DNA of 64,000 bases from Bacteroidales bacterium (lineage in GTDB: Bacteria > Bacteroidota > Bacteroidia > Bacteroidales > WCHB1-69). The translations under genes were made by a program, and so were the position numbers. How positions within the stretch are numbered: the first letter of the stretch is position 1; each line of letters opens with the position of its first letter. Shown here piece after piece: positions 8,788 to 48,128 of the stretch. The notes under the pieces were generated by a model that was not told the DNA's origin, did no database searches, and saw only the letters and a program-made list of their open reading frames with translations. The stretch lies in NCBI GenBank assembly GCA_024400755.1, contig JAKSMG010000003.1, positions 48,596 to 112,595 of the forward strand, given 5' to 3'.

Positions 8788-10308
8788 TTATATTTTAACA
8801 GGCAAAGATACGATAAAAGTACTGCCTTGATCTATTTTACTTTTTACCGTGATATTTCCATGGTGCAAAGATACAATTTTTTTAACATATCCCAAACCCA
8901 AGCCAAAACCTTTTGTATCATGCAAATTTCCCTGAGGAACACGATAAAACTCATTGAAAATCTTCTTAATATGCTCTGGCGCAATGCCAATTCCGTTATC
9001 CTGGACTTCAATAATAAGATTTTTGGTGTCATTAAATGTCCTTACCTCAATGGTGGGATTTTTGGGAGAATATTTAATGGCGTTTTCAATTAGATTAATA
9101 ATAACATTTTCAATATGAATCGGATCGGCAAAAATGCGATGAACCGGTGCATCTAACTTCAACGAAATACTTCCCATATTGCTTGAAACCTGCAAAGAAA
9201 TACTTTTCGTGATTTTATTGATTAATTCATGCACATCAACCAAATCAATGTTCATTCGCAATTGTCCTTTGTTGAGTTTGGCGATGAGCAAAATATTGGC
9301 CACCATATTTTCGAGCCGATTATTCTCATCCTTGATAATCGAGACATACATCTGATTCATTTTGTCATCCACGCTTACATCACCCATAGCCTCGCAAGCC
9401 AGCGAAATGGTGGCGATGGGCGTTTTAAATTCGTGTGTCATATTATTAATAAAATCATTTTTGACATCCGACATCTTTTTTTGTCGATATAAAGCAGTCA
9501 AAGTGGCCGCACAAATGACGATAATGATGATAATAAAACAGACAATCAAAATAACAATCGTACTCATACGTTGAAAGAAAATGCTTCTTTCTGAAGGAAA
9601 AACCAAGACGAGGTAATGCGGCGCAATGAATTTATCATTGGATTTTAATTTGAATATATACTCGCTCTGCAAAATTTTATCTTGTTGCACATAACGTGGT
9701 TCAACGACAAAATTCGACGTATAGGCGTTATATAACGCAAAATCAAAAAAGCCGGTGATATTTTCCTCCGCAAGTGCTTCTTTAATGATTCGGTAAAGAA
9801 AATCTCGATTTAGCAACTGTCGGTCACTACTGTCCATTTCCACCCATTTTTTCTGCAATTTCATTTCAGAATTTGCACCACCCACGGCTGAGGTCCACAA
9901 ATTATCATATTCCTGAATAGAAGACAAATAGTTGGTGTCAAAATATATGGTATCGACCACGGCATAAATCGTATTATCCTGATTAAAATCGAAAGTGGTA
10001 TTAATAATACCTATAGGTCGCCGGGTGGCCGAATCCAGGTAAAACCGGTTCGTAAACTTTTTGTACACGGTAGAAATGGGCACGGAATCGGGATCCAACT
10101 GATGAATAGAAGAAAACGCGATCGTGTCATTTTTCAAGGTGGCGTCGATTTTATTGACGACCCCTTCTCCGGCAATCAAAACCTCATTCACGAAGATGCT
10201 CCGCTGCACTTTTTCAGCTTCTTTATAAAGTTGAAAGATAGCAAATACAAGCAGGATAGCAATGCAACCCAAAAAAATTGAAAGAGGTATTAAGAGTCGT
10301 TTTCTCAT
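8788..10308 (-). CDS. Sensor histidine kinase
   Basis: Has two TM segments around a periplasmic region, the H-box HEFKTPIATI, and ATPase N/G boxes (NLIENAIKYS, DNGIGI, GFGLGLGYV). Confidence 0.88.
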   Translation of the reverse strand: MRKRLLIPLSIFLGCIAILLVFAIFQLYKEAEKVQRSIFVNEVLIAGEGVVNKIDATLKNDTIAFSSIHQLDPDSVPISTVYKKFTNRFYLDSATRRPIGIINTTFDFNQDNTIYAVVDTIYFDTNYLSSIQEYDNLWTSAVGGANSEMKLQKKWVEMDSSDRQLLNRDFLYRIIKEALAEENITGFFDFALYNAYTSNFVVEPRYVQQDKILQSEYIFKLKSNDKFIAPHYLVLVFPSERSIFFQRMSTIVILIVCFIIIIIVICAATLTALYRQKKMSDVKNDFINNMTHEFKTPIATISLACEAMGDVSVDDKMNQMYVSIIKDENNRLENMVANILLIAKLNKGQLRMNIDLVDVHELINKITKSISLQVSSNMGSISLKLDAPVHRIFADPIHIENVIINLIENAIKYSPKNPTIEVRTFNDTKNLIIEVQDNGIGIAPEHIKKIFNEFYRVPQGNLHDTKGFGLGLGYVKKIVSLHHGNITVKSKIDQGSTFIVSLPVKI

Positions 10309-22959: not shown

Positions 22960-22986
22960 CACCTTGATTCAAAAAAGTGAAAATTT

Positions 22987-24699
22987 ATGGAATTATCAGA
23001 ACAAGAAATCATTAGAAGGAAAAAATTAGAAGATTTGTTGAATTTGGGTATTAATCCTTATCCAGCAGCAGAATATGAAATCAATGCCACAACAGCACAG
23101 ATTTTAGAGGAATTCCCGAAGGACAATACGAAATTCCAAAATGTCAGCATTGCGGGACGTATTATGAATCAACGTATTATGGGAGCCGTTTCCTTTTATG
23201 AAATCCAAGATTCTGTTGGCAGAATCCAAATCTACGCCAAACGTGACGAACTTTGCCCAGGCGAAGACAAAACAATGTACAACAACGTGTTCAAGAAATT
23301 GGACATTGGCGACATCATTGGCGTAAAAGGATTCGTTTTCACAACGCAGATGGGCGAAACCAGTATTCACATCAAGGAATTCACCATTCTTTGCAAATCG
23401 GTTTGCCCGCTGCCTATCGTCAAGGAAAAGGATGGCAAGGTTTACGACGCATTCCAGGATCCGGAACAACGCTACCGCCAACGCTATATCGACCTCATCG
23501 TCAATCCGCAGGTGAAAGACACTTTCATCAAGCGCACGCTGCTGGTCAACACCATGCGTAGTTTCTTGAACGAAAAGGGCTATTTGGAAGTTGAAACTCC
23601 CATTTTGCAGCCTTTATACGGTGGCGCTGCCGCCCGCCCGTTCAAAACCCACCACAACACGTTGGATATGACGCTGTACCTGCGTATCGCTGACGAATTG
23701 TATCTGAAAAAACTGATCGTGGGCGGTTTCAACGGTGTGTATGAATTTTCAAAAGACTTCCGCAACGAAGGCATGGACCGCTTCCATAATCCCGAATTTA
23801 CCCAGATGGAGCTGTACGTTCCCTACAAAGATTATGAATGGATGATGAACTGCGTGGAAGAGATGGTGGAACGCATCGCCCTCGCCCTGCACGGCGATAC
23901 CAAAGTGCAAGTGGGCGAAAACATCATCGATTTCAAACGTCCTTGGAAACGCTACACGATGTTTGAAGCCATTGAGCATTTTACCGGCGTGAACATTGCT
24001 GAAATGGACGAAGCCCAATTGGCCAAATTTGCCGCCGAACAAGGCGTGAAAGTGGATGAAACTATGGGTAAAGGCAAGTTAATCGACGAAATTTTCGGCG
24101 AGACCTGCGAACACAAACTGATTCAGCCGACCTTCATTTATGATTATCCTATCGAAATGTCTCCTCTGACTAAAAAACACCGCTCAAAACCAGGTTTGAC
24201 CGAACGTTTTGAAGCTATGTGCAATGGAAAGGAAATCTGCAACGCCTATTCCGAATTGAACGACCCATTGGATCAAAGAAAGCGTTTTGAAGACCAGTTG
24301 GAATTGGGCAAACGTGGCGACACGGAATCCATGGTTTTGGATGAAGATTTCTTGAGATCACTGGAAATCGGTATGCCTCCTACAGCAGGCTTGGGCATCG
24401 GAATCGACCGTCTAGCAATGATTATGACCAATTCTCCATCCATCCAGGATGTACTCTTCTTCCCGCAAATGCGTCCGGAAAAGAAGGTGGAAACTTCCAC
24501 GGACAAGGATTTTATGGAGAGAGGTGTGCCTGAAGAATGGGTTCCAGCCTTGCGAAAACTGAACATTAACACCATCGAACAGTTAAAAGCCGCCAATCCA
24601 AATAAACTTTTGAATGACCTTGGTGGAATGCGTAAGAAGCTGAAAATGAACATTCCAGCCGCCCAATTGGATGAAATTAAAAGTTGGATTGAAAAATAA
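22987..24699 (+). CDS. lysS: Lysine--tRNA ligase (class II) with C-terminal extension
   Basis: Has an OB-fold N-domain and class II motifs ([16 protein letters not shown]). The 570-aa length, with the C-terminal tail, is typical of Bacteroidota. Confidence 0.93.
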
Positions 24700-24775: not shown

Positions 24776-24859
24776 GCCGAAGTGGCGGAATTGGTAGACG
24801 CGTCGGTCTCAAAAACCGATGAGGTAACACTCGTGCCGGTTCGATCCCGGCCTTCGGTA
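24776..24859 (+). tRNA. tRNA-Leu (anticodon CAA), type II with long variable arm
   Basis: Folded by hand. The acceptor stem is GCCGAAG/CTTCGGT with a G1:U72 wobble. The D arm is GCG-GAATTGGTAGA-CGC. The anticodon arm is TCGGT-CTCAAAA-ACCGA. The variable arm is 16 nt, the T arm is GCCGG-TTCGATC-CCGGC, and the discriminator is A. CCA is not encoded. Confidence 0.9.
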
Positions 24860-31016: not shown

Positions 31017-31237
31017 CGGAATTATCCCCCTCCGTCTTGCAAAGAGATTCCGATTTCGCTACGCTTCATCGGAATGGCGATTAATCATTAGGCAAGAAGT
31101 GGCGGCGGCACCCAACACGTACATTAACCTCCTATTTTGTGCCGCCGCCATTATACATACAAGGTATTTCGCCATTCCAACGTTTCCGACGTAAGGAGGG
31201 AACATCGGAATCTCAACAAGATTAAAATGGATAGTCC
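31017..31237 (+). repeat. Structured interspersed repeat, copy A (longest, most diverged)
   Basis: Shares three blocks with the copies at 42057 and 47840: CGGAATTATCC...TCTTG.AA.GAGATT, the conserved TCGGAATGGCGA loop, and CAACAAGATTAAA. The central GC hairpin is GGCGGCGGCAC/GTGCCGCCGCC. Confidence 0.75.
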
Positions 31238-31290
31238 ATTTTTTTATTCAATTTTCATCATTTCAGAATTCTTAACTGCCAATAATTTTG

Positions 31291-31298
31291 TATCTTTG
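31291..31298 (+). promoter_or_regulatory. -7 promoter box (TATCTTTG) for the S41 peptidase/dnaG unit
   Basis: TAnnTTTG lies 21 nt upstream of ATG 31319. Confidence 0.6.
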
Positions 31299-31318
31299 CC
31301 AACTTAAATTTTCGAATC

Positions 31319-33079
31319 ATGAAAAAAACACTTAGATTTGTCATTAGTCTCTTCTTATTATTCTTCACTGTCAATGGATTTGCACAAAATCCTTCCTATC
31401 AGCAAAATGCAGGCAAAATGCAGCAAATGTTGCAGGCCATCAACGGAATGTATGTCGATACCGTGAACTTTATGCCACTGGTAGAAAAAGGCATTGTTGA
31501 AATGCTGAAAGAGCTGGATCCGCATTCTGTTTATATTCCGAAAAAAGACGTGCAACAAACCAACGAGCCGTTAGAAGGCAAATTTGACGGCATCGGTGTT
31601 ACTTTTCAATTAATCAAAGATACCATCAATGTGATGGAAGTTATTCCAGACGGTCCGTCGGACAAGGTCGGACTTCGTGCCGGGGATAAGATTTTGAAGG
31701 TGGATACGGCCATTGCCTGCGGTAAACACGTGAACAACAAGTGGGTACAGAACCATTTGCGCGGCGTCAAAGGCACCAAAGTAGTGGTGGGTATCAAGCG
31801 CGGCCGCAACCCCGAACTGTTAGAATTTACCATCACCCGCGATAAAATTCCGATGAACAGCGTGAACGTGTCGTTTATGGTAAACGAACACACCGGCTAC
31901 ATCAAATTGGACCGTTTCGCGATGACCTCGCCGAATGAAGTGCATACCGCCCTCACCAAACTCAACGCCCGCGGAATGAAAAACCTCATCTTAGACCTTC
32001 GCGGCAATGGCGGCGGCTACTTGGACGTAGCATTTCAAATTTCTGATATTTTCCTGGGTGCCGACCAGATGATTGTCTATACAGACAATTTCAGAAAAAC
32101 CGGACAACAATTCCTTTCTACCGGCAAAGGCGAATTCCAAAAAGGCAAGCTGATTGTATTGGTAGATGAAGGCTCCGCTTCCGCATCAGAAATCGTCTCC
32201 GGCTGTATTCAGGACTGGGACCGCGGCTTGGTAATCGGTCGCCGTACTTTTGGTAAAGGATTGGTACAGAAACCATTATATCTCAATGATCAATCTATGG
32301 TGCGTCTTACCATTTCACATTATTACACTCCAACGGGACGCTGCATCCAGAAACCTTACAATGACGGTTTGGAAAGTTATTTCAACGACCTCAACAACCG
32401 CAGCAAGCACGGGGAATTTCTCACCGCCGACAGCATTAAATTTCCTGATTCACTGAAATATACGACACCAAGAGGACGTACGGTCTATGGCGGCGGCGGC
32501 ATCATGCCCGACATTTTCATTCCTTTGGATACTTCCAAATACTCCACATTCTACAACGAACTCGCCCGCAAAGGCATTTTCGGCAGTTTCACAATGGACT
32601 ATATGGAATCTCACCGCGATGAAATGAAAGCCAAATATCCTGATTTTGAAGCTTATAAAAACAACTTCGAAATTTCTGACGAACTTTATGCCGACTTTAT
32701 CAAATATGCGAAAAAAGAAGGCGTGAGCGACAGCGTCAAATTCGTTTTTTCCTCTTATCTGCAAGGATTTTTGAAAGAAAACAAAGGAAAACTGGACTCA
32801 CTTTATCATTCAAGCAATGATTTTGAAAAACAAGCCGATTTTGATAAGATGCTGACCGAATACATCAGCAAACAAAGTGCGGAAGCCCTGCGTCTGAAAA
32901 ATTTGAATAAGGCACCTGAATACATCAAGGAATACCTCAAATTTGAAATTGCCCGTACCTTGTTCAGCTATGGTGAGGCATACGAAGTGTTCCTGACCAG
33001 TGACGACACCTTCCAGCAAGCGGTCAAGATCATGAACGACAATAAAATTTTCAAGAAATTTAAAGTCAACGACAAGTGA
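31319..33079 (+). CDS. S41 family C-terminal processing (tail-specific) peptidase
   Basis: Has a signal peptide, a PDZ domain (GLRAGDKILKVD), and S41 core motifs (DLRGNGGGYL, GSASASEIV, GRRTFGKG). Confidence 0.85.
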   Translation: MKKTLRFVISLFLLFFTVNGFAQNPSYQQNAGKMQQMLQAINGMYVDTVNFMPLVEKGIVEMLKELDPHSVYIPKKDVQQTNEPLEGKFDGIGVTFQLIKDTINVMEVIPDGPSDKVGLRAGDKILKVDTAIACGKHVNNKWVQNHLRGVKGTKVVVGIKRGRNPELLEFTITRDKIPMNSVNVSFMVNEHTGYIKLDRFAMTSPNEVHTALTKLNARGMKNLILDLRGNGGGYLDVAFQISDIFLGADQMIVYTDNFRKTGQQFLSTGKGEFQKGKLIVLVDEGSASASEIVSGCIQDWDRGLVIGRRTFGKGLVQKPLYLNDQSMVRLTISHYYTPTGRCIQKPYNDGLESYFNDLNNRSKHGEFLTADSIKFPDSLKYTTPRGRTVYGGGGIMPDIFIPLDTSKYSTFYNELARKGIFGSFTMDYMESHRDEMKAKYPDFEAYKNNFEISDELYADFIKYAKKEGVSDSVKFVFSSYLQGFLKENKGKLDSLYHSSNDFEKQADFDKMLTEYISKQSAEALRLKNLNKAPEYIKEYLKFEIARTLFSYGEAYEVFLTSDDTFQQAVKIMNDNKIFKKFKVNDK

Positions 33080-35061
33080 TTTCAAAGGAAACGATTGATG
33101 AAATCTATAATGCCGCTCAAATCGAGGAAGTAGTGGCCGATTTTGTTCCCTTGAAACGCAGGGGGCAGAATTGGGTAGGCGTTTGTCCTTTTCACAGCGA
33201 CAAAAACCCGTCTATGTACGTGAGTCCTCGTTTGGGCATTTTCAACTGCTTTGTCTGTCACACGGGCGGCAACGCCGTCAACTTCGTGATGAAGCACGAA
33301 CAGATTTCGTATCCTGAAGCCTTGCGGTACTTGGCCAAGAAGTACGCCATCAACATTGTGGAAGATGCGCAGAAGGAAGATTTAAGTGAGGAGGACCGAC
33401 TGCGGGAAAGCTTGATTGGCGTTAATAAATACGCTGAACAGTATTTTATTAATCAGCTACTCCATACCGAAGAAGGGCAAAACATTGGACTTTCATACTT
33501 TAAGGAACGCGGTTTTACCCAAGCCACCATTGAAAAGTTCAAACTCGGCTACTGCCCCGACGGCTGGGACAAATTTACCCAGGACGCCCTCAAAGCGGGC
33601 TATAAATTAGAGCACCTGATTCAAGTGGGATTGACAAAGCAGTCGGAAAGCGGCAAAACCTTCGATTTTTACCGCGGCCGCGTCATCTTTCCCATCTATG
33701 ACAAATTGGGCAAGCCCGTTGGTTTTGGCGGAAGAATCTTGAAGAAAGACGAAAAGATCGCCAAATACTTCAATTCGCCCGAAAACCCGATTTACCATAA
33801 AAGCAATGTCCTGTACGGCTTTTACAATGCCCAAAAATCCATCAAGACCAAAGATAATGTTTATCTTGTCGAAGGTTATACGGATGTACTGTCCCTGGTG
33901 CAGGCCGGCGTCGAAAATGTGGTGGCCACTTCAGGAACGGCGTTTCCCGACGGCCAAATCCGCCTGCTGAAATCCAAAACCAACAATGTGACCGTACTGC
34001 GTGATGGCGACAGAGCCGGCATCAACGCCGCTCTCAAAGACATCAACATTTTGCTGAGCAACGGTTTCAATGTCAGCGTGGTACTGCTGCCCGAAGGCGA
34101 AGACCCCGATTCTTTCGCTCGCAGTCATCGGGATTCTGAAATTGCTGATTATCTGAAAGATAATGCGAAAAGCTTTATTTTGTTCAAAGCCAAAGTAATG
34201 GCCGATGAAGCCGGAAATGATCCCGCCAAGCGAGCCGCTATGGTCAAAGACATTATTCAGTCCATCGCATTGATTCAGGACGACATCACAAGACAATTAT
34301 ACATTAAGGAACTGGCCAAGCAATTTGACATAGAAGAAAAGTCACTCAATGCCGAATTGCGAAAATATATCGTCAAGTCAATCAAGGAAACCGCGAAAGA
34401 AGATTCAAAGCAAGACCTCAACCTACATCTTCCCAAAGAAGAATCATCAAATGTCACTATAAATCTCGATAAAGAAAGTGCCCTGGCACATATTGAGCAG
34501 AGCATTATTTTGTTGATTTTAAAATACGGCGCATTTGAAATCGACATTGAAGAACAAGACGAAGAAGGGCAAATCAGTACAAGAAAAATCAGGTTGGATC
34601 AATATATCTTCAATGAATTTTCCGACGAAATGATATGTTTTCAGCAACCGTTATTTCAGAAAATATATGAAGAATACGCCGTCATAGCGGCCAAAACGAA
34701 TGGTCAAGATGAAATCAAGAAGTTCTTCGTCAACCACGAAAATACGGAAATACAGCAATTTGCGATGAGTCAACTGATCAATGAAGAACCCAATATCAGT
34801 CCTGGTTGGGAACAAAAATTTGAAGTCAGCACCGATTCCGTCAACAATAACATCTACAAACTCAACCAAGCAGTTGAAAACAGTATTCTTATGTTCAAAT
34901 TGCGTCTGACTGAACATTATCTGAAAATACTTGAAAACGAACTATCTGCCGACAAAAACGAAGCAATACAGGCACAAATCTTGAAACATTATGACAAAGT
35001 TTTAAAACAACGTCATATTATTGCCAATTTATTAAACACCGTGGTCAGCCAATTTTCATAA
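33076..35061 (+). CDS. dnaG: DNA primase
   Basis: Has a CHC2 zinc finger (CPFHSDKNPSMYV...CFVCH) and TOPRIM motifs (VEGYTDV, LRDGDRAG). The GTG start overlaps the peptidase stop by 4 nt. Confidence 0.92.
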   Translation: MISKETIDEIYNAAQIEEVVADFVPLKRRGQNWVGVCPFHSDKNPSMYVSPRLGIFNCFVCHTGGNAVNFVMKHEQISYPEALRYLAKKYAINIVEDAQKEDLSEEDRLRESLIGVNKYAEQYFINQLLHTEEGQNIGLSYFKERGFTQATIEKFKLGYCPDGWDKFTQDALKAGYKLEHLIQVGLTKQSESGKTFDFYRGRVIFPIYDKLGKPVGFGGRILKKDEKIAKYFNSPENPIYHKSNVLYGFYNAQKSIKTKDNVYLVEGYTDVLSLVQAGVENVVATSGTAFPDGQIRLLKSKTNNVTVLRDGDRAGINAALKDINILLSNGFNVSVVLLPEGEDPDSFARSHRDSEIADYLKDNAKSFILFKAKVMADEAGNDPAKRAAMVKDIIQSIALIQDDITRQLYIKELAKQFDIEEKSLNAELRKYIVKSIKETAKEDSKQDLNLHLPKEESSNVTINLDKESALAHIEQSIILLILKYGAFEIDIEEQDEEGQISTRKIRLDQYIFNEFSDEMICFQQPLFQKIYEEYAVIAAKTNGQDEIKKFFVNHENTEIQQFAMSQLINEEPNISPGWEQKFEVSTDSVNNNIYKLNQAVENSILMFKLRLTEHYLKILENELSADKNEAIQAQILKHYDKVLKQRHIIANLLNTVVSQFS

Positions 35062-35084
35062 AAATCCAATTAAAAAACTTTACT

Positions 35085-36437
35085 ATGGATAACAAAAACG
35101 AAAGAGGTTTTTCCAGCAATATAGGAGCCATTATCGCGGCAGCGGGTGGTGCTGTCGGATTGGGCAACATTTGGCGTTTTCCTTACGTGGTTGGACAAAA
35201 TGGCGGAGCTGCCTTTCTGTTAATGTATGTCCTATTCATTTTGCTGTTAGGAATTCCTGTTATGCTGAGTGAAATTATCATTGGAAGACGCTCACAAAGA
35301 AATTTAGTCGGTGCATTTCGCACTTTGGCTCCCAAACATAAGGCCTGGATGGGTGTGGGAGTATTGGGACTGATCGTGGCCTTTATTATTTATTCTTTTT
35401 ATAGCGTGGTGGCAGGATGGACCCTTAATTACATAGTATTATCCTGCAACGGACAACTTATGGGCAAAAATCCGGCGGAGATCACGCAAATGTTCTCTTC
35501 CTTTACTCAAAGTTCATTCTGGCCCTTATTATACCAAATTGTTTTCATAGGGATAACCGCGATTGTCGTCATTCTTGGAGTAAAAAAAGGCATTGAAAAA
35601 AGTACCACAATTCTTATGCCGTTACTTTTATTATTGATTATTGTGATGTGTATTCGTTCCATTAGCTTGCCGGGAGCGGAAAAAGGCATTAAATTTCTAT
35701 TCAAAGCCGATTTCAGCAAATTAAATGCGGACAGTTTCTTAACTGCCTTAGGGCAAGCTTTTTTCTCCCTAAGTATAGGTATGGGGGCCTTAATCACATA
35801 CGGTTCATACATTCGCAAAGAAGACAACCTCTTCACGACAAGTCTATGTATCGCAGGGGCAGACACTTTGGTGGCCATCCTGTCCGGCATTGCCATTTTC
35901 CCTGCCGTATTTGCCTTCGGACTCAATCCCACCTCTGGCCCCAGCTTGGTCTATGAAGTCCTCCCCAACGTGTTCAACAGTATGCATTATGGGCAACTAT
36001 TTGCCATTGTCTTCTTTATTCTATTAGCCATTGCGGCACTAACCTCCACAATTTCTTTATTGGAAGTCGTCGTTTTATGGGAAATAGAAGAACTCAAATG
36101 GAGCCGGCGCAAAGCAGCCATATTAAGTTCTCTATGCATCTTCCTCATTGGCATTGGCTGTACGCTGTCTTTTGGGCCGCTACAAGGTTTCAAAATCTTT
36201 GACTTAACCATTTTCGAATTTTTCGACCAACTTACGGCCGTATATCTTTTGCCCATTGGCGCACTATTATTTACGATATTTATCGGATGGTATCTGCCCA
36301 AGACAGACGTTTATGATGAATTGTCCAATGGTGGAAAATTAAAGGTCAGATACTTCAAATATTATTATTTCATTGTTCGTTATATAGCACCTATCGCTTT
36401 ATTAATCGTTATCATTACAAATATTATTTTTGACTAA
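35085..36437 (+). CDS. Sodium-dependent transporter, SNF (neurotransmitter:sodium symporter) family
   Basis: Contains the GLGNIWRFPY motif and has 11-12 TM helices. Confidence 0.9.
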   Translation: MDNKNERGFSSNIGAIIAAAGGAVGLGNIWRFPYVVGQNGGAAFLLMYVLFILLLGIPVMLSEIIIGRRSQRNLVGAFRTLAPKHKAWMGVGVLGLIVAFIIYSFYSVVAGWTLNYIVLSCNGQLMGKNPAEITQMFSSFTQSSFWPLLYQIVFIGITAIVVILGVKKGIEKSTTILMPLLLLLIIVMCIRSISLPGAEKGIKFLFKADFSKLNADSFLTALGQAFFSLSIGMGALITYGSYIRKEDNLFTTSLCIAGADTLVAILSGIAIFPAVFAFGLNPTSGPSLVYEVLPNVFNSMHYGQLFAIVFFILLAIAALTSTISLLEVVVLWEIEELKWSRRKAAILSSLCIFLIGIGCTLSFGPLQGFKIFDLTIFEFFDQLTAVYLLPIGALLFTIFIGWYLPKTDVYDELSNGGKLKVRYFKYYYFIVRYIAPIALLIVIITNIIFD

Positions 36438-36439
36438 AG

Positions 36440-37018
36440 ATGAATTTCAATCAAAAAATACAACTCAAGGTTGGCAATATGCTCAACCCCACCCCAGTGG
36501 TAATGGTCAGTTGTGGGGAAACGCCAGACGAATACAACATCATCACGGTGGCCTGGACCGGCACATTATGTTCTGATCCTCCTATGTGTTACATTTCAGT
36601 GCGACCGGAACGTCATTCCTACGCCATTCTCAAAGAAAGAAAACAATTCGTCATCAACTTGGTAAATGAGCCCTTGGCTGCCGCAACCGACTGGTGCGGC
36701 GTACGTTCCGGGAAAAAATACAATAAGTTTTTTGAGACAAACCTCACTCCCATTCGTGGAAATGTGGTCAAAGCCCCTATGATTTACGAATCGCCCGTAA
36801 ATTTGGAATGCGAAGTCACCGACATCGTATCATTGGGTTCTCACGATATGTTTATTGCCAAAATCGTGGCCGTACACGCTGATCCACGATATTTGGACAA
36901 AAAAACTGGGGCGTTAGATCTCAAAAGAGCAAATTTGGTCGCTTATTCGCACGGACAATACTTTGGTTTAGGCAAAATTTTAGGAAAATTCGGATTTTCC
37001 GTCGAAAAAAAGAAATAA
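36440..37018 (+). CDS. Flavin reductase-like (FMN-binding split-barrel) protein
   Basis: The segment PTPVVMVSCG...YNIITVAWTG...P...ISVRP fits the flavin reductase domain pattern. Length is 192 aa. Confidence 0.7.
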   Translation: MNFNQKIQLKVGNMLNPTPVVMVSCGETPDEYNIITVAWTGTLCSDPPMCYISVRPERHSYAILKERKQFVINLVNEPLAAATDWCGVRSGKKYNKFFETNLTPIRGNVVKAPMIYESPVNLECEVTDIVSLGSHDMFIAKIVAVHADPRYLDKKTGALDLKRANLVAYSHGQYFGLGKILGKFGFSVEKKK

Positions 37019-37043
37019 AAAGAACAATTTAAATGTTAATACT

Positions 37044-37490
37044 ATGAGTTTAGAAGAAAAAATAAACAATGACATTAAAGCCGCCATGTTGGCCAAGGAA
37101 AAGGAAAAATTGAACGCACTTCGGGCCATCAAATCCGCTTTATTATTATTAAAAACTGAAAAAGCCGGAGCAGAAATTACTCCTGAGGCAGAATTAGGAT
37201 TACTCCAAAAATTGGTTAAACAGCGCAAGGAATCCGCCGAATTGTATAAATCACAAAACAGACAGGATTTGTATGAGGAAGAAATGGCGCAATACGAAGT
37301 AATCGTGAAATATCTGCCGGCACAAATGTCTGCCGACGAAATTAAAAATGTCATCAGCCAACTCATTACTGACAATAATATCTCAGGCATCAAGGAAATG
37401 GGCAAACTGATGGGATTGGCCACCAAGCAGTTGGCTGGCAAAGCCGATAACAAAACCGTGGCAGAAATCGTTAAATCGTTGCTTTCATAA
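37044..37490 (+). CDS. GatB/YqeY domain protein
   Basis: Contains MSLEEKINNDIKAAMLAKEKEKLNALRAIKSA and YLPAQMS.DE, which are typical of the YqeY family. Length is 148 aa. Confidence 0.8.
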   Translation: MSLEEKINNDIKAAMLAKEKEKLNALRAIKSALLLLKTEKAGAEITPEAELGLLQKLVKQRKESAELYKSQNRQDLYEEEMAQYEVIVKYLPAQMSADEIKNVISQLITDNNISGIKEMGKLMGLATKQLAGKADNKTVAEIVKSLLS

Positions 37491-37512
37491 TTTTTTCACC
37501 TAAAAAATAAAG

Positions 37513-38646
37513 ATGAAATACTACATTGTTGCTGGCGAGGCTTCCGGTGATCTTCACGGTTCCAATTTAATGAAGGCCTTAAAAGAACGCGATGGCGAAG
37601 CTGACTTTCGTTTCTGGGGAGGCGATTTAATGCAGTCTGTGGGAGGCGAGCTGATCAAGCATTACAAGGAAATGGCCTTTATGGGATTCTTTGAAGTCGC
37701 TACGCATTTGCGGCAAGTGCTCAACAACATCAAAGTTTGTGAAGTGGACATTCTTCTTTACGAACCGGATGTGCTCATTCTCATCGATTATCCCGGATTT
37801 AATTTGAGAATTGCAGAATTTGCCCACGAACACGGCATCAAAGTCATCTATTATATTTCACCTCAGGTTTGGGCATGGAAAAAGAACAGAATCCATAAAA
37901 TAAAGCGTTGCGTGGATGAAATGATTGTGATTCTGCCTTTTGAAAAAGAATTTTACGAAAAACATCAGGTTCCAGTCCATTTTGTGGGCCATCCTCTTTT
38001 GGATGCCATTGACAAAGACATTCGCAAAAGTGAAGCGGTGACTGATTTCCGCCAACGCAATAACTTAGACGAAAGAGAGATTGTGGCCATTCTTCCCGGC
38101 AGCCGCAAGCAGGAAATTGACAAAATGCTACCGGTAATGCTGGAAGTCGCCACACAATATCCTCAATATCAGTTTATTGTATCTGGCGTAAATTGGCAGC
38201 CACAGACTTTATACGAAAAATACCTAAAAAAAACAAATATCAAGATTGTCTATGACCAGACTTATCCCTTGCTGCTCAATGCCAAATCAGCGTTGGTGAC
38301 ATCGGGAACCGCCACTCTCGAAACCGCCCTTTTAGGCACTCCACAAGTGGTGTGTTACAAAGGAAGTGCCATTTCCTATATCATTGCCAAACATTTAATC
38401 AAGGGAATTAGTTACATTAGTTTAGTAAACCTCATCTTGGACAAGCCAGCCGTGGTCGAATTAATTCAATACGATATGAATGCCAAACGGCTTTCTGAAG
38501 AATTTGAAAAAATCACTTTTGACGAGCAAAACATCCAGCGAATGAAGGCAGATTATGCCAATTTGCACCACCTTCTCGCCGACAGTCACGCTTCGGCCAA
38601 TGCCGCCGAGGTCATCACCAAATTTACAAAATCTCAAAATTCTTAA
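37513..38646 (+). CDS. lpxB: Lipid-A-disaccharide synthase
   Basis: Has the N-terminus MKYYIVAGEASGDLHGSNLMKAL and the segment DYPGFNLR. Length is 377 aa. Confidence 0.88.
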   Translation: MKYYIVAGEASGDLHGSNLMKALKERDGEADFRFWGGDLMQSVGGELIKHYKEMAFMGFFEVATHLRQVLNNIKVCEVDILLYEPDVLILIDYPGFNLRIAEFAHEHGIKVIYYISPQVWAWKKNRIHKIKRCVDEMIVILPFEKEFYEKHQVPVHFVGHPLLDAIDKDIRKSEAVTDFRQRNNLDEREIVAILPGSRKQEIDKMLPVMLEVATQYPQYQFIVSGVNWQPQTLYEKYLKKTNIKIVYDQTYPLLLNAKSALVTSGTATLETALLGTPQVVCYKGSAISYIIAKHLIKGISYISLVNLILDKPAVVELIQYDMNAKRLSEEFEKITFDEQNIQRMKADYANLHHLLADSHASANAAEVITKFTKSQNS

Positions 38647-38664
38647 ATCTCTCCTCGCTATTAA

Positions 38665-38680
38665 ACGCAATCCATTGCGT
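38665..38680. repeat. REP-like hairpin (ACGCAAT-CC-ATTGCGT) downstream of lpxB
   Basis: Has the same CGCAAT/ATTGCG core as 20657-20710 and is followed by CTCTACA. Confidence 0.6.
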
Positions 38681-38722
38681 CTCTACAAAATTTCTAATTT
38701 TCCAAATTTCTAAAAAAAATCG

Positions 38723-38730
38723 TATCTTTG
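38723..38730 (+). promoter_or_regulatory. -7 promoter box (TATCTTTG)
   Basis: TAnnTTTG lies 29 nt upstream of ATG 38759. Confidence 0.6.
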
Positions 38731-38758
38731 CACTTTTAATCATAACAAAAACAAAAAA

Positions 38759-39958
38759 ATGGCAAGAGTATTAATTATTGGCGCCGGAGGTGTTGGCGCA
38801 GTCGTAGCACACAAATGTGCTTCCGTTCCAGAAGTTTTTACCGAAATAATGATGGCAAGCCGCACCAAGGCCAAATGCGACAAAGTCGCTGCAGCTGTCG
38901 GTGGAAATCGCATCCAAACGGCTCAAGTCGATGCCGATAATGTTCAGGAAACCATCGAATTGATCAACAGTTACAAACCTGACTTGCTGATTAACGTGGC
39001 ATTGCCATATCAAGACCTGCCATTGATGGATGCTTGTTTGGCCACCAAAACCAACTATATGGATACCGCCAATTACGAACCCCGTGACAAGGCAAAATTC
39101 GAATACAGTTGGCAATGGGCCTACCAAGACCGCTTCAAGGAAGCCGGCATTATGGCGCTACTCGGATGCGGTTTTGACCCGGGTGTAACCAGTATTTACA
39201 CCGCCTATGCCGCCAAACACCATTTTGACGAAATCCATTATCTGGATATCGTTGACTGCAATGCCGGGGACCACGGCAAAGCCTTCGCCACCAACTTCAA
39301 CCCGGAAATCAATATTCGTGAAGTAACGCAAAGAGGCAAATACTGGGAAAACGGACAATGGGTGGAAATTGACCCTATGTCGATTCACAAAGCCGTAACT
39401 TATCCCAACATCGGTGACCGCGAATCTTACTTGCTTTACCACGAAGAATTGGAATCATTGGTACGCAGTTATCCAACCATCAAGCGTGCCCGCTTCTGGA
39501 TGACTTTCGGACAAAAATATTTGACTGTTTTGAACGTGTTGCAGGAAGTTGGTATGACCAGCATTAAGCCCATCAACTACGAAGGCAAGGAAATCGTTCC
39601 TTTGCAGTTCTTGAAGGCCGTCCTTCCTGAACCATCTTCTTTGGGCGAAGGATACACGGGACAAACTTCCATCGGTTGCCAGATCAGAGGTATCAAAGAC
39701 GGTAAAGAACGAACCTACTATGTTTGGAACAACTGTGACCACGCCGCCTGCTACAAGGAAATCGGTGCCCAGGCAGTTTCTTATACCACGGGAGTTCCCG
39801 CTATGCTCTGTGCCAAAATGATTTTGACTGGCAAATGGAACGGAAAAGGCGTTTTCAATGTTGAACAATTTGACCCAGATCCATTTATGAAGGAAATTGG
39901 CGGCTACGGACTGCCTTGGAACGAACAAATTGACCAACCCCTTCCTATTGAAAAATAA
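38759..39958 (+). CDS. Saccharopine dehydrogenase family protein, probable carboxynorspermidine dehydrogenase
   Basis: Has a Rossmann N-terminus (VLIIGAGGVGAVVAHK). At 399 aa, the size and sequence pattern fit the polyamine-pathway enzyme common in Bacteroidota. Confidence 0.78.
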   Translation: MARVLIIGAGGVGAVVAHKCASVPEVFTEIMMASRTKAKCDKVAAAVGGNRIQTAQVDADNVQETIELINSYKPDLLINVALPYQDLPLMDACLATKTNYMDTANYEPRDKAKFEYSWQWAYQDRFKEAGIMALLGCGFDPGVTSIYTAYAAKHHFDEIHYLDIVDCNAGDHGKAFATNFNPEINIREVTQRGKYWENGQWVEIDPMSIHKAVTYPNIGDRESYLLYHEELESLVRSYPTIKRARFWMTFGQKYLTVLNVLQEVGMTSIKPINYEGKEIVPLQFLKAVLPEPSSLGEGYTGQTSIGCQIRGIKDGKERTYYVWNNCDHAACYKEIGAQAVSYTTGVPAMLCAKMILTGKWNGKGVFNVEQFDPDPFMKEIGGYGLPWNEQIDQPLPIEK

Positions 39959-39978
39959 CAAATAACATAATCTGACTA

Positions 39979-40008
39979 AGGGGCGAATCATAATTCGCCC
40001 CTCTTTGT
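39979..40008 (+). terminator. Rho-independent terminator
   Basis: A 10-bp stem with a tetraloop (AGGGGCGAAT-CATA-ATTCGCCCCT), followed by CTTTGTCT. Confidence 0.75.
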
Positions 40009-40018
40009 CTAATCAACT

Positions 40019-42052
40019 ATGAATTTCAAGCTACACGCCCCTTTCGCGCCTTCCGGCGACCAACCCCAAGCCATCAAAGAATTGGTGGAGGGCCTGAGTC
40101 GTGGCGACAAAGCGCAAACACTCTTGGGCGTAACCGGTTCGGGCAAAACCTTCACCATCGCCAATGTCCTCAACGAAGTTAACCGCCCCGCCCTCATTCT
40201 CAGCCACAACAAAACCCTGGCAGCGCAATTATACAGCGAATTTAAGCAGTTTTTCCCCGAAAACGCCGTCGAATACTACGTTTCCTATTACGATTATTAC
40301 CAACCTGAAGCCTATATTCCTACCACCAATACCTACATCGAAAAGGACTTGGCTATCAATCAGGAAATTGACAAACTGAGGATGCACACGACTTCCTCAC
40401 TGCTTTCCGGCCGACGAGACATTGTGGTCGTCGCATCCGTTTCCTGCATTTACGGCATTGGCAATCCCGACGATTTTGCCCAAAACGTCATCAATATCCA
40501 TAAAGGGATGACCATTGACCGCGACCAACTTTTATATGCTTTCGTTTCCGGTTTATATTCTCGCACCGAGCTGGGACTGGAACCAGGAAAATTCCGCGTG
40601 AAAGGCGATACGGTGGATATTTTCCCGCCTTACAACGACACGGCTTTCCGCATCGTCTTTTTTGATGATGAAATCGAAGATATTTTTGAAATTAATCCTG
40701 TATCAGGAGATAAAATTAATAAACTGAATCTGCTTACGCTTTATCCGGCCAGTATCTTTGTAACATCTCAAGATTCTATGAATAATGCGATTGCGGAAAT
40801 CAAAATGGATCTGGACACCCAGATACAATATCTTCATTCTTTAGATAAACATTTGGAAGCCAAACGATTAGATGATCGTGTGAATTACGATATCGAAATG
40901 ATGAAAGAATTAGGGTATTGCTCCGGCATTGAAAATTATTCTCGCTATTTCGACCGACGCAAACCAGGAGAAAGACCATTCTGCATTTTAGATTTCTTTC
41001 CTGATGATTTTATCTTGATTATTGACGAAAGCCACGTTACCGTGCCGCAAATCGGCGCGATGTATGGCGGTGACCGCTCCCGCAAAATCAATTTGGTGGA
41101 TTATGGATTCAGACTGCCCGCCGCATTGGATAACCGTCCTTTGAAATTCAATGAATTTGAATCATTAATTGGGCAAACCATTTTTGTGAGTGCCACCCCT
41201 GCCCAATACGAATTAGATAAATCCGACGGTGTAATTATTGAGCAAATTGTCAGACCAACCGGCTTGTTGGACCCACCTATCGAAGTCCGACCCGCCATCA
41301 ATCAAGTTGATGATTTGCTTAACGAAATTGAATTGACGGTTGAAAAAAAACAACGGGTTTTGGTCACCACATTGACCAAAAAGATGGCGGAAGAGCTCAA
41401 TTCCTACCTTCTTCGCATTGGCATTCGGTCCAAATATATTCATTCTGAAGTTGAAACTTTGGAACGCATTGAAATTCTCAAAGACTTGCGTGCCGGTGCC
41501 ATTGACGTGCTGGTTGGCGTGAACCTGCTTCGTGAAGGCATTGACCTGCCAGAAGTTTCCTTAGTGGCCATTATGGATGCCGACAAAGAGGGTTTTCTTC
41601 GAAACGAACGCTCCTTGACCCAAACCGCAGGACGTGCCGCACGTCACGTAGATGGTCGCGTGATTTTCTATGCCGAGCACGTCACTAAGTCAATGCAGGC
41701 CACCATTGACGAAACGCTGCGGCGAAGAACGAAACAATTGGCTTACAACGAAAAATACCACATCATCCCGAAAACCGTCATCAAGTCGGATTCCATCCCT
41801 GCGGAAATAGATCATAAACGCTTTGAAAAAGTGGATGCTTTTGAGTATAAAAACCACGAAAAAGCAACTTCCATCGCCGCAGAACAAGCCATTGACTACA
41901 AGATGTACAACATCGAGCAACTACGTGCCAGTGCCAAAAAATTACGCAAACAACTGGAAAATGCGACCAAGGAACTGGACTTTATGCTGGCCGTCAAACT
42001 TCGTGACGAAATCATTGAAATCGAAAAACTTATCGCTGAACAAAAAGCATAA
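40019..42052 (+). CDS. uvrB: Excinuclease ABC subunit B
   Basis: Has the Walker A motif GVTGSGKT, helicase motifs, and a C-terminal UVR domain (LAVKLRDEIIEIEKL). Confidence 0.95.
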   Translation: MNFKLHAPFAPSGDQPQAIKELVEGLSRGDKAQTLLGVTGSGKTFTIANVLNEVNRPALILSHNKTLAAQLYSEFKQFFPENAVEYYVSYYDYYQPEAYIPTTNTYIEKDLAINQEIDKLRMHTTSSLLSGRRDIVVVASVSCIYGIGNPDDFAQNVINIHKGMTIDRDQLLYAFVSGLYSRTELGLEPGKFRVKGDTVDIFPPYNDTAFRIVFFDDEIEDIFEINPVSGDKINKLNLLTLYPASIFVTSQDSMNNAIAEIKMDLDTQIQYLHSLDKHLEAKRLDDRVNYDIEMMKELGYCSGIENYSRYFDRRKPGERPFCILDFFPDDFILIIDESHVTVPQIGAMYGGDRSRKINLVDYGFRLPAALDNRPLKFNEFESLIGQTIFVSATPAQYELDKSDGVIIEQIVRPTGLLDPPIEVRPAINQVDDLLNEIELTVEKKQRVLVTTLTKKMAEELNSYLLRIGIRSKYIHSEVETLERIEILKDLRAGAIDVLVGVNLLREGIDLPEVSLVAIMDADKEGFLRNERSLTQTAGRAARHVDGRVIFYAEHVTKSMQATIDETLRRRTKQLAYNEKYHIIPKTVIKSDSIPAEIDHKRFEKVDAFEYKNHEKATSIAAEQAIDYKMYNIEQLRASAKKLRKQLENATKELDFMLAVKLRDEIIEIEKLIAEQKA

Positions 42053-42056
42053 AATT

Positions 42057-42225
42057 ACGGAATTATCCCTTTCCGTCTTGTAAAGAGATTCCGACTACGC
42101 TATGCTTCGTCGGAATGGCGATGAGTCATTAGTCAAAAAGTAGCGGCGACGGAACACAACTGCGATATAGTTCGGTCACGGTGTCGCCGCAAACATCCCA
42201 ACAAGATTAAAAGGGATAATTCCGT
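42057..42225 (+). mobile_element. Structured interspersed repeat, copy B (intact, MITE-like)
   Basis: Has perfect 13-bp terminal inverted repeats (ACGGAATTATCCC ... GGGATAATTCCGT), directly flanked by AAAATT on both sides (42051-42056 and 42226-42231). Internal hairpins are present. There is no ORF. Confidence 0.65.
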
Positions 42226-42265
42226 AAAATTTTTAAAAAACACCCCCGCATGTCGGATAATTGAT

Positions 42266-42273
42266 TATTTTTG
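42266..42273 (+). promoter_or_regulatory. Orphan -7 promoter box (TATTTTTG)
   Basis: TAnnTTTG with no intact gene downstream. It lies about 75 nt upstream of the FISUMP relic. Confidence 0.35.
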
Positions 42274-42348
42274 CATTCGTGATCCGTATTCATAGAATGA
42301 TAAATGCGGCGGTTTTTTTCCTTCTAAATTACTGACAATTATATCCAG

Positions 42349-42518
42349 TTGGACAGAGTGCTCATTGCCGACTTCGCCCAAGGTTGGCAGGAAAGCATTT
42401 ACTATCCCGACACCACACTGACGTTAAGCGTGATGGATACAGTACCAGTATTGCAAAGGCGTTGGCATCCACTTCCGGTTGGGACGACTTTTACAGTGTG
42501 CGTTGCCTTCGAGATTAG
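42349..42518 (+). pseudogene. Decayed FISUMP-domain gene relic (frameshifted, internally deleted)
   Basis: One frame (the tracked ORF frame from 42349) reads AQGWQESIYYPDTTLT, compare GICPKGWHVPSDTEWTQLT. The frame through 42453-42518 reads AKALASTSGWDDFYSVRCLRD-stop, compare AKALASTTGW and GFSVRCLRD in the 2092-aa protein. The sequence between these motifs is missing. Confidence 0.45.
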
Positions 42519-47796: not shown

Positions 47797-47839
47797 AGGA
47801 AAAACAATGAAATATAAAAAAATGCAACATTAAAAATAT

Positions 47840-48004
47840 CGGAATTAGCACCTTTCTTCTTGTAACGAGATTTCAACTTCGCTATGGTTCGTCGGAATGG
47901 CGACGAACCATTAGGCAAGAAGTGGCGGCGACGGAAAGCAACTGCGATATTGTTCGGACACGGTATCGCCGCAAACATTTCAACAAGATTAAACGAGATA
48001 ATCC
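47840..48004 (+). repeat. Structured interspersed repeat, copy C
   Basis: Collinear with copy B over its full length. It has a perfect 10-bp hairpin (ATGGTTCGTC-GGAATGGC-GACGAACCAT) and degenerate termini. Confidence 0.75.
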
Positions 48005-48041
48005 AGACAAAAAATGACAACTTTGCAAGACGGATAAGGTA

Positions 48042-48049
48042 TAATTTTG
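48042..48049 (+). promoter_or_regulatory. -7 promoter box (TAATTTTG) for the giant FISUMP gene
   Basis: TAnnTTTG lies 80 nt upstream of ATG 48129. Confidence 0.45.
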
Positions 48050-48128
48050 AAAAATATTATTTATAATTGCAAAATCAAGTTTATTATTGAGAAAAGATAT
48101 AAAGCATTATAAATTAGAAAGTTAAATA

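Follow-up and report, generated by a model that had tools for sequence, protein, structure and literature searches.

What is the palindromic repeat that lies between the uvrB stop codon and a convergent peptidase gene in this uncultured Bacteroidales genome, and how might it have arrived there? The original prediction had read it as a non-autonomous, MITE-like element of unnamed family, present in three copies in the window (by which we mean the whole 64-kb stretch of DNA that was analyzed). We find that the segment at 42058-42224, referred to here as copy B, is very probably a MITE that shares its ends with a group of IS1595-family insertion sequences frequent in gut-type metagenome contigs, an assignment that we base on sequence comparison. 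The 25-bp ends, the 8-bp duplications, the small size and the lack of a transposase gene all support the non-autonomous MITE reading. Copy B and its surroundings contain the following features:

40019-42052, + strand: uvrB, whose product matches UvrB Pfam domains; stop codon TAA at 42050-42052
42050-42057: left target-site duplication of copy B, TAAAATTA; its first three bases are the uvrB stop codon
42058-42224, + strand: MITE copy B, 167 bp, with IS1595-type ends, in the uvrB 3′ untranslated region
42058-42082, + strand: left terminal inverted repeat of copy B, CGGAATTATCCCTTTCCGTCTTGTA; 23/25 to the consensus CGGAATTATCCCTTTTAGTCTTGTA
42088-42116, + strand: internal hairpin 1, ATTCCGAC ... 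GTCGGAAT; kept in copies A, B and C
42143-42190, + strand: internal G+C-rich hairpin 2, GCGGCGAC ... GTCGCCGC; copy A has another loop and one compensated stem pair
42200-42224, − strand: right terminal inverted repeat of copy B, reverse complement CGGAATTATCCCTTTTAATCTTGTT; 23/25 to the consensus CGGAATTATCCCTTTTAGTCTTGTA
42225-42232: right target-site duplication of copy B, TAAAATTT; 7/8 to the left copy
about 42236-42332: long hairpin followed by TTTTTTT, arms AAAAACACCCCCGCAT ... ATGCGGCGG; lies 11 nt past the right duplication

Where exactly does the element begin and end? The inverted repeat on which the original prediction rested is present: the 13-mer ACGGAATTATCCC lies at 42057-42069 and its reverse complement at 42213-42225, and the perfect repeat is really 18 bp long, with 42055-42072 pairing with 42210-42227. 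By chance, a first-order Markov simulation predicts about 0.85 perfect inverted repeats of 13-mers, spaced within 300 bp, in the 64-kb window. From position 42047 the window reads GCA TAA AATTA, then CGGAATTATCCCTTTCCGTCTTGTA ... AACAAGATTAAAAGGGATAATTCCG, then TAAAATTT. Family-wide analysis places the true ends of copy B at CGG (first bases) and CCG (last bases), and the outermost A and T of the 169 bp first assigned to the element are the last and first bases of the duplication. The element itself therefore stands, while its extent is corrected to 42058-42224, or 167 bp. In the same way, AAAATT does occur on both sides, at 42051-42056 and 42226-42231, but these are the inner six bases of an 8-bp duplication with a 7/8 match rather than a 6-bp duplication. 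The element had also been placed 4 nt past the uvrB stop codon; it starts 5 nt past it, and the target octamer took in the stop codon. The view that the element has no coding capacity holds up, since the longest open reading frame inside copy B is 36 codons.

How can a 167-bp segment be assigned to a family? The original prediction could not name one; the ends of this previously unnamed repeat are now assigned to IS1595. The 25-bp end consensus of the family was built from 96 arms, and the right arm of copy B together with one flanking base is identical (26/26) to arms in several metagenome loci. When viral contigs were scanned with GGAATTATCCCTTT, most matches were single and due to chance; several contigs carry the motif twice, inverted and 0.2-3 kb apart. 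Some of these inverted pairs enclose a 307-aa protein with an ISXO2-like/IS1595 DDE domain (PF12762) and the IS1595 zinc ribbon (PF12760), and others enclose TnpB. A metagenome scan with GGAATTATCCCTTTNNNTCTTG returned at least 120 loci; among the 120 matches listed, at least 18 loci contain an IS1595 transposase homologue and at least about 22 a TnpB homologue.

A search of the genome for a longer element with the same ends and a transposase gene had been proposed. Transposase-encoding elements with these ends, 1.6-3.4 kb in length, do exist in gut-type metagenome contigs and on a plasmid of Treponema succinifaciens (NC_015386.1), but none lies in the 64-kb window. They include two complete elements:

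L186, 9217-12213: complete element of 2997 bp; transposase scoring 181 bits on NF033547; passenger ORFs
L133, 6020-9407: complete element of 3388 bp; transposase scoring 181 bits on NF033547; passenger ORFs

The cut-off of NF033547 ("IS1595 family transposase") is 75 bits. The transposase of locus L063 contains PF12762 and PF12760, and tblastn identifies IS1595 transposase homologues in L124 and L093. A tblastn search of plasmids led to pTRESU01 of T. succinifaciens DSM 2489, which carries an annotated IS1595-family transposase (50% identity) in an element bounded by CGGAATTATCCC ends and by a non-trivial perfect duplication, TTCCAAAA. In all, the same ends occur on transposase-encoding IS1595 elements in three phyla-level backgrounds, and dozens of MITEs of 40-600 bp are bounded by them.

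Two results on this subject count against the MITE reading. Within the 64-kb window, tblastn with IS1595 transposase and TnpB finds no homologue of either, which agrees with the earlier statement that the window has no transposase gene. In addition, the interior of copy B has no similarity to any IS1595 element that we recovered, so copy B is not a simple internal-deletion derivative of these elements. A scan of the genome collection with the interior motif TCGGAATGGCGANNNNNCATTAG returned only the orthologous copy in one MAG and one chance match, indicating that the interior is specific to this uncultured Bacteroidales lineage. Scanning viral contigs with the inner-arm motif TCCGTCTTGNANAGAGATTCC gave nothing.

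Is the A+T-rich match on the two sides of copy B a true target-site duplication or, as the original prediction allowed, chance? We settled the duplication length by a scan of offsets and lengths. Among the matches listed, a perfect 8-bp duplication abuts CGG...CCG in 22 of 48 non-redundant end pairs, compared with 0.43 expected from partner permutation, and 4 more pairs have one mismatch, as in copy B; since two collections share a few of the sites, the number of distinct ones is slightly lower than 48. At the level of the family, then, the match is not a chance one. The targets are 92% A+T, and perfect 8-bp duplications flank 5/6 of the transposase-encoding elements checked. We rejected a model of 6-bp duplications with one variable terminal base: 24 pairs are perfect under this model, yet the six bases are the inner part of the 8-bp duplication. 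The family length agrees with that of IS1595-family members, which usually make 8-bp duplications (PMC8101967). For copy B alone, we estimate the chance probability of a 7/8 match at roughly 0.003-0.02. Its duplication is imperfect and its octamer A+T-rich, and copy A has no duplication, which are further points against the MITE reading.

Two side observations concern the family at large. Locus L189 contains, at 463-502, a 40-bp element made of nothing but two directly adjoining terminal repeats, with a perfect TAATGGTT duplication on its flanks, which suggests that the ends alone may be enough for transposition. Separately, L026, L133 and L163 are all on the 387,654-bp contig Ga0310786_10000003 (IMGVR_UViG_3300031998_000001), which is classed as viral and holds at least four family members: one transposase-encoding, one TnpB-carrying and two MITEs.

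If copy B is an IS1595-derived MITE, how would it have been inserted? By analogy with the family, the insertion would depend on a DDE transposase that has a zinc ribbon at its N terminus, is encoded by a full-length IS1595-type element at another genomic location and acts in trans. It would bind both ends of copy B and cut the element out, and the element would then be pasted into an A+T-rich octamer with an 8-bp staggered cut, with gap repair duplicating the octamer. At this locus the target would have been TAAAATT(A/T), which overlaps the uvrB stop codon. TAA is restored by the left copy of this octamer, which leaves the UvrB protein as it was. A relative whose UvrB is 91% identical (L007) reads GCATAAAAT at its uvrB stop codon, which fits the left octamer as native sequence and is compatible with the proposed target.

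On its other side, copy B faces the convergent peptidase gene, and no open reading frame longer than 68 codons lies between the two. The hairpin at about 42236-42329, a probable uvrB terminator, has a fold that does not stand out statistically (z = −1.15); its loop of about 60 nt contains, at 42266, a −7 motif of the Bacteroidetes type, TATTTTTG. Since copy B is located between the stop codon and this predicted terminator hairpin, it is probably co-transcribed, and would give the 3′ untranslated region of uvrB a palindrome that folds strongly. We also observed that, in L007 (12035-12334) and likewise in L008 and L009, the spacer past uvrB is filled by a different repeat system. In this type of spacer, found where UvrB is 91% identical, a tandem array of CATCATTGTAGCCATCTGCGTCC... 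comes first and a series of TTGCAACTGCGAGACGCAGTTGCTTACA palindromes after it. In this clade, the uvrB 3′ spacer is a repeat hot spot.

The window had been said to contain three copies in one orientation, all of them intergenic, and a BLAST search of the element against the window agrees: copies A (at about 31017), B (42057) and C (at about 47840) are homologous, lie on the + strand and are intergenic. A common orientation of 3/3 has a chance probability of 0.25 and carries no weight. A motif search found no further family arms in the window, and we discarded a terminal-repeat-like BLAST match at 22972-22997 as a chance match at a gene start. The features of the two other copies are:

31017-31238, + strand: MITE copy A, 222 bp, chimeric and degenerate; at a strain-level synteny break
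47832-47839: left duplication of copy C, AAAAATAT, perfect 8/8
47840-48049, + strand: MITE copy C, 210 bp; left end CGGAATTAGCACC; outer right end differs from that of copy B
48050-48057: right duplication of copy C, AAAAATAT, perfect 8/8

The original prediction treated the three copies as equals, and their homology is borne out, but their equivalence is not: copy C is 210 bp long with another right end, and copy A is a recombinant. The right end of copy C seemed degenerate, with an inner B-type right arm at about 47985-48005; an inverted left-type arm was found 15 nt further on. Read in reverse complement, the resulting outer right end (48021-48049) is CAAAATTATACCTTATCCGTCTTGCAAAG, and the outer arms pair in the predicted fold. 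This arrangement and the intact duplication are also found in three same-species contigs (L264-L266). In copy A, a B-type 5′ part is joined to a short-form 3′ part, and the right tip is mutated (TGGACTATCC). The short form to which the 3′ part is related is an 85-bp element in the relative L005, which has two family copies within 22 kb. It had been noted earlier that a lack of flanking duplications at the other copies would tell against insertion. Copy C is flanked by a perfect 8/8 duplication, and no matching flanking duplication was found at copy A.

Could the segment instead be a structured non-coding RNA gene or a cis-acting RNA, such as an sRNA or a 3′-UTR stabilizer or terminator, with the repeats as its closing stem? 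The + strand of copy B has a very stable predicted fold, at −69 kcal/mol (z = −6.9), and the internal hairpins are kept, with one compensated pair between copies A and B, all of which would suit an RNA. However, the − strand folds equally well (z = −6.6), and once the arms are removed, the interior shows no significant structure (z = −1.8); as both strands fold alike and the interior is unremarkable, the structure signal comes mainly from the paired ends. These ends are homologous to transposon ends and have target duplications alongside, and the copies occupy unrelated transcriptional contexts, one past a gene, one between divergent genes and one between co-directional genes. A search of 41950-42350 against Rfam 15 gave nothing relevant at an E-value ≤10, and no match to the element in the window reached the gathering threshold. 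We have dropped a known RNA as an explanation and regard an RNA gene of any kind as highly improbable. The sole Rfam match at the gathering threshold in the window is a tRNA gene at 24776-24859.

When was the element inserted? It is present at the uvrB site in all relatives with UvrB 98%-100% identical. In a MAG with UvrB 98% identical, the element is 97.6% identical and has the same flanking octamers, so the insertion probably predates the split from this closest MAG. The contigs of L001, L004 and L252 (UvrB 99%-100% identical) stop 24-31 nt inside the element; three independent short-read contigs ending in an element are what is expected of a genomic repeat. The element is absent past uvrB in relatives with UvrB 96% (L005, L006), 93% (L251) and 91% (L007-L009) identical, whose downstream DNA cannot be aligned with the window. 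The absence in the 96% relatives would be compatible with insertion after that split. One contig, L250, was set aside as a probable misassembly, since unrelated sequence begins just before the 3′ end of its uvrB.

A comparison of uvrB 3′ regions in related strains had been proposed as a way to find an empty site. Relatives that lack the element do exist, but the clean single-copy target does not appear among the UvrB homologue contigs: past the stop codon these relatives carry unrelated DNA and are not collinear with the window, which weighs against the MITE reading. CinA homologues likewise gave no empty site for copy C, the relatives being about 77% identical in DNA with synteny that ends at cinA. 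Nor was one found among same-species strains, where variants of site A (the site of copy A) and the duplication of copy C were seen.

The lack of an empty site would suit a palindromic repeat of the REP, ERIC or BOX kind that is maintained by the host, is ancestral at the locus and was not moved by a transposase. So would the modular forms of the family (short, about 85 bp; long, 167-228 bp; compound, 310 bp), which resemble those of ERIC and BOX. We nevertheless consider such an origin very improbable. Transposase-encoding IS1595 elements in three phyla-level backgrounds have these very ends, the 8-bp duplications at 22/48 family insertions and at copy C are a signature of transposition, and the element is absent past uvrB at 96%, 93% and 91% UvrB identity. 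An IS1595-derived MITE remains the reading that we prefer.

What has become of the element since its insertion? At site A, three structural alleles are found in three genomes, each with a different left flank: the 222-bp chimera in the window, a 48-bp remnant (L261, about 1020-1070) and a 310-bp compound (L005, 959-1268). The 48-bp remnant is all that is found in two strains with 99% identity to the window over 4.8 kb; in it, AGATT microhomology connects the left arm with the last 15 nt, and the sequence on its left is completely different. In the 310-bp compound of L005, the interior is inverted relative to the window, and the unusual right tip and the right flank are identical. Site A is direct evidence that the element undergoes deletion, exchange of its flanks and inversion between its two ends. 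The window and L005 are syntenic only over 31211-42053, from copy A up to the uvrB stop codon, and around copy C synteny with more distant relatives ends at the start of cinA; given these limits, all three copies coincide with synteny breaks. We considered a composite transposon formed by copies A and B around the 10.8-kb block between them; as this block is made up of housekeeping genes and retains its synteny in L005, where no copy is present past uvrB, we rejected it.

The interior flip in L005 implies that the element can behave as an invertible segment. Is it then an inverton of the Bacteroidales type, in which the repeats are invertase sites and the segment flips to control its neighbors? 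The outermost right tip and right flank are the same in the two orientations of site A, and Bacteroidales invertons have a size range that takes in segments of 170-310 bp between inverted repeats. However, the inversion is seen only between genomes that are 86%-90% identical in DNA, for which a single historical event is enough. The Bacteroidetes −7 motif TAnnTTTG is missing from both strands of all three copies, the gene that copy B faces is convergent, and the repeats are IS1595 ends next to 8-bp target duplications, features for which an inverton has no need. We judge a DNA switch to be very unlikely.

A more serious alternative is that the element is a MITE by origin and is now an immobile fossil, a dispersed repeat that drives deletions, inversions and flank exchange in a lineage with no active transposase. 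The three alleles and three left flanks at site A, including those of the two nearly identical strains, are consistent with this idea, as are the degenerate ends of copies A and C, the fixation of the element at uvrB in all relatives with UvrB 98%-100% identical and the lack of a transposase within the 64-kb window. Set against it are the ends of copy B, both 23/25 to the consensus, and nothing in the sequence bars mobilization. We regard the fossil state as possible but doubtful. It is also possible, and we put it forward only tentatively, that the MITE family in this lineage is more than passive and is a main substrate of strain-level genome restructuring.

Elements of this family outside the window carry cargo of several kinds, which we record as observations in their own right. 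TnpB genes, which encode an RNA-guided nuclease of the IS200/IS605 type, are found inside IS1595-type terminal inverted repeats with no TnpA. Among the matches listed, nine TnpB elements of 1284-1327 bp are complete, with both ends present:

L163, 679-1963 (same site as L026, 5261-6545): TnpB element with a perfect 8-bp duplication, AGTGATTT
L236, 2214-3505: TnpB element with a perfect 8-bp duplication, ATTGAATA
L153, 261-1551: TnpB element with a perfect 8-bp duplication, AAAGAAAT
L149, L228, L231, L224, L131 and L210: further TnpB elements

The TnpB of L026 scores 314 bits on NF040570. The 3′ end of tnpB is about 15-45 nt from an element end, and in L026 and L163 the gene runs into the terminal repeat. 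Given the IS1595-type ends and the perfect 8-bp duplications, the TnpB elements were probably moved by IS1595-type transposition and not by the IS200/IS605 mechanism; TnpB thus appears to travel as cargo of a DDE-transposon shell. A search of the TnpB-carrying elements for a guide RNA gave no Rfam match. In the papers that mention TnpB together with IS1595, neither the title nor the opening of the abstract addresses this association. Other elements with the same ends, 1.07-1.33 kb in length (L017, 9265-10335, which equals L155; L188, 1467-2796; and L218), have an ORF of about 300 aa as their sole cargo. These ORFs are of two types that are 27% identical, and the L017 ORF has no significant Pfam match. 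In L063, a G+C-rich IS1595 element with the same tip contains a passenger with a Rap1a immunity-protein domain (PF18602) at 9580-9966.

What does the assignment mean for this genome and its relatives? A repeat in an uncultured Bacteroidales genome now belongs to a named family, and the 25-bp end consensus together with the 8-bp duplication rule allows other copies and autonomous partners to be found. The repeat explains why short-read assemblies break past uvrB in this species. The uvrB coding sequence is untouched, and its 3′ untranslated region has gained a strong palindrome. The family also marks rearrangement junctions between closely related strains. None of these consequences is surprising for a MITE.

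How does copy B compare with known systems? IS1595 elements encode a DDE transposase with an N-terminal zinc ribbon that is related to eukaryotic Merlin, and similar ends of the CGGnnTT type are a feature of the ISNha5 and ISNwi1 groups. The 25-bp terminal inverted repeat of the IS1595 family has a CGGAATTATCCC tip in common with copy B, and the family makes 8-bp duplications at A+T-rich targets, as do the elements related to copy B. However, the transposase-encoding elements with these ends are 1.6-3.4 kb long, whereas copy B is 167 bp long and has no transposase, and its interior is unrelated to those of the full-length elements that we recovered. The transposase-encoding partner elements carry passenger genes.

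ERIC, Correia and BOX elements are small, intergenic, imperfect palindromes that are co-transcribed with flanking genes, exist in size variants produced by internal insertions and deletions, and have been tied to rearrangements. As these elements have other ends and other duplications (TA for Correia), they resemble copy B in behavior only.

The closest parallel, likened here by description, is the MITE derived from the IS1595-family element ISHwa6 in Haloquadratum walsbyi, which is 165 bp long and present in 7 copies, with 25-bp repeats and an 8-bp duplication (PMC3852290, Table 4). It has nearly the same dimensions as copy B, the same architecture and the same parent IS family, although its host is an archaeon and that of copy B a Bacteroidales bacterium. 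An IS1595-derived MITE of such dimensions is therefore already known, and copy B adds one.
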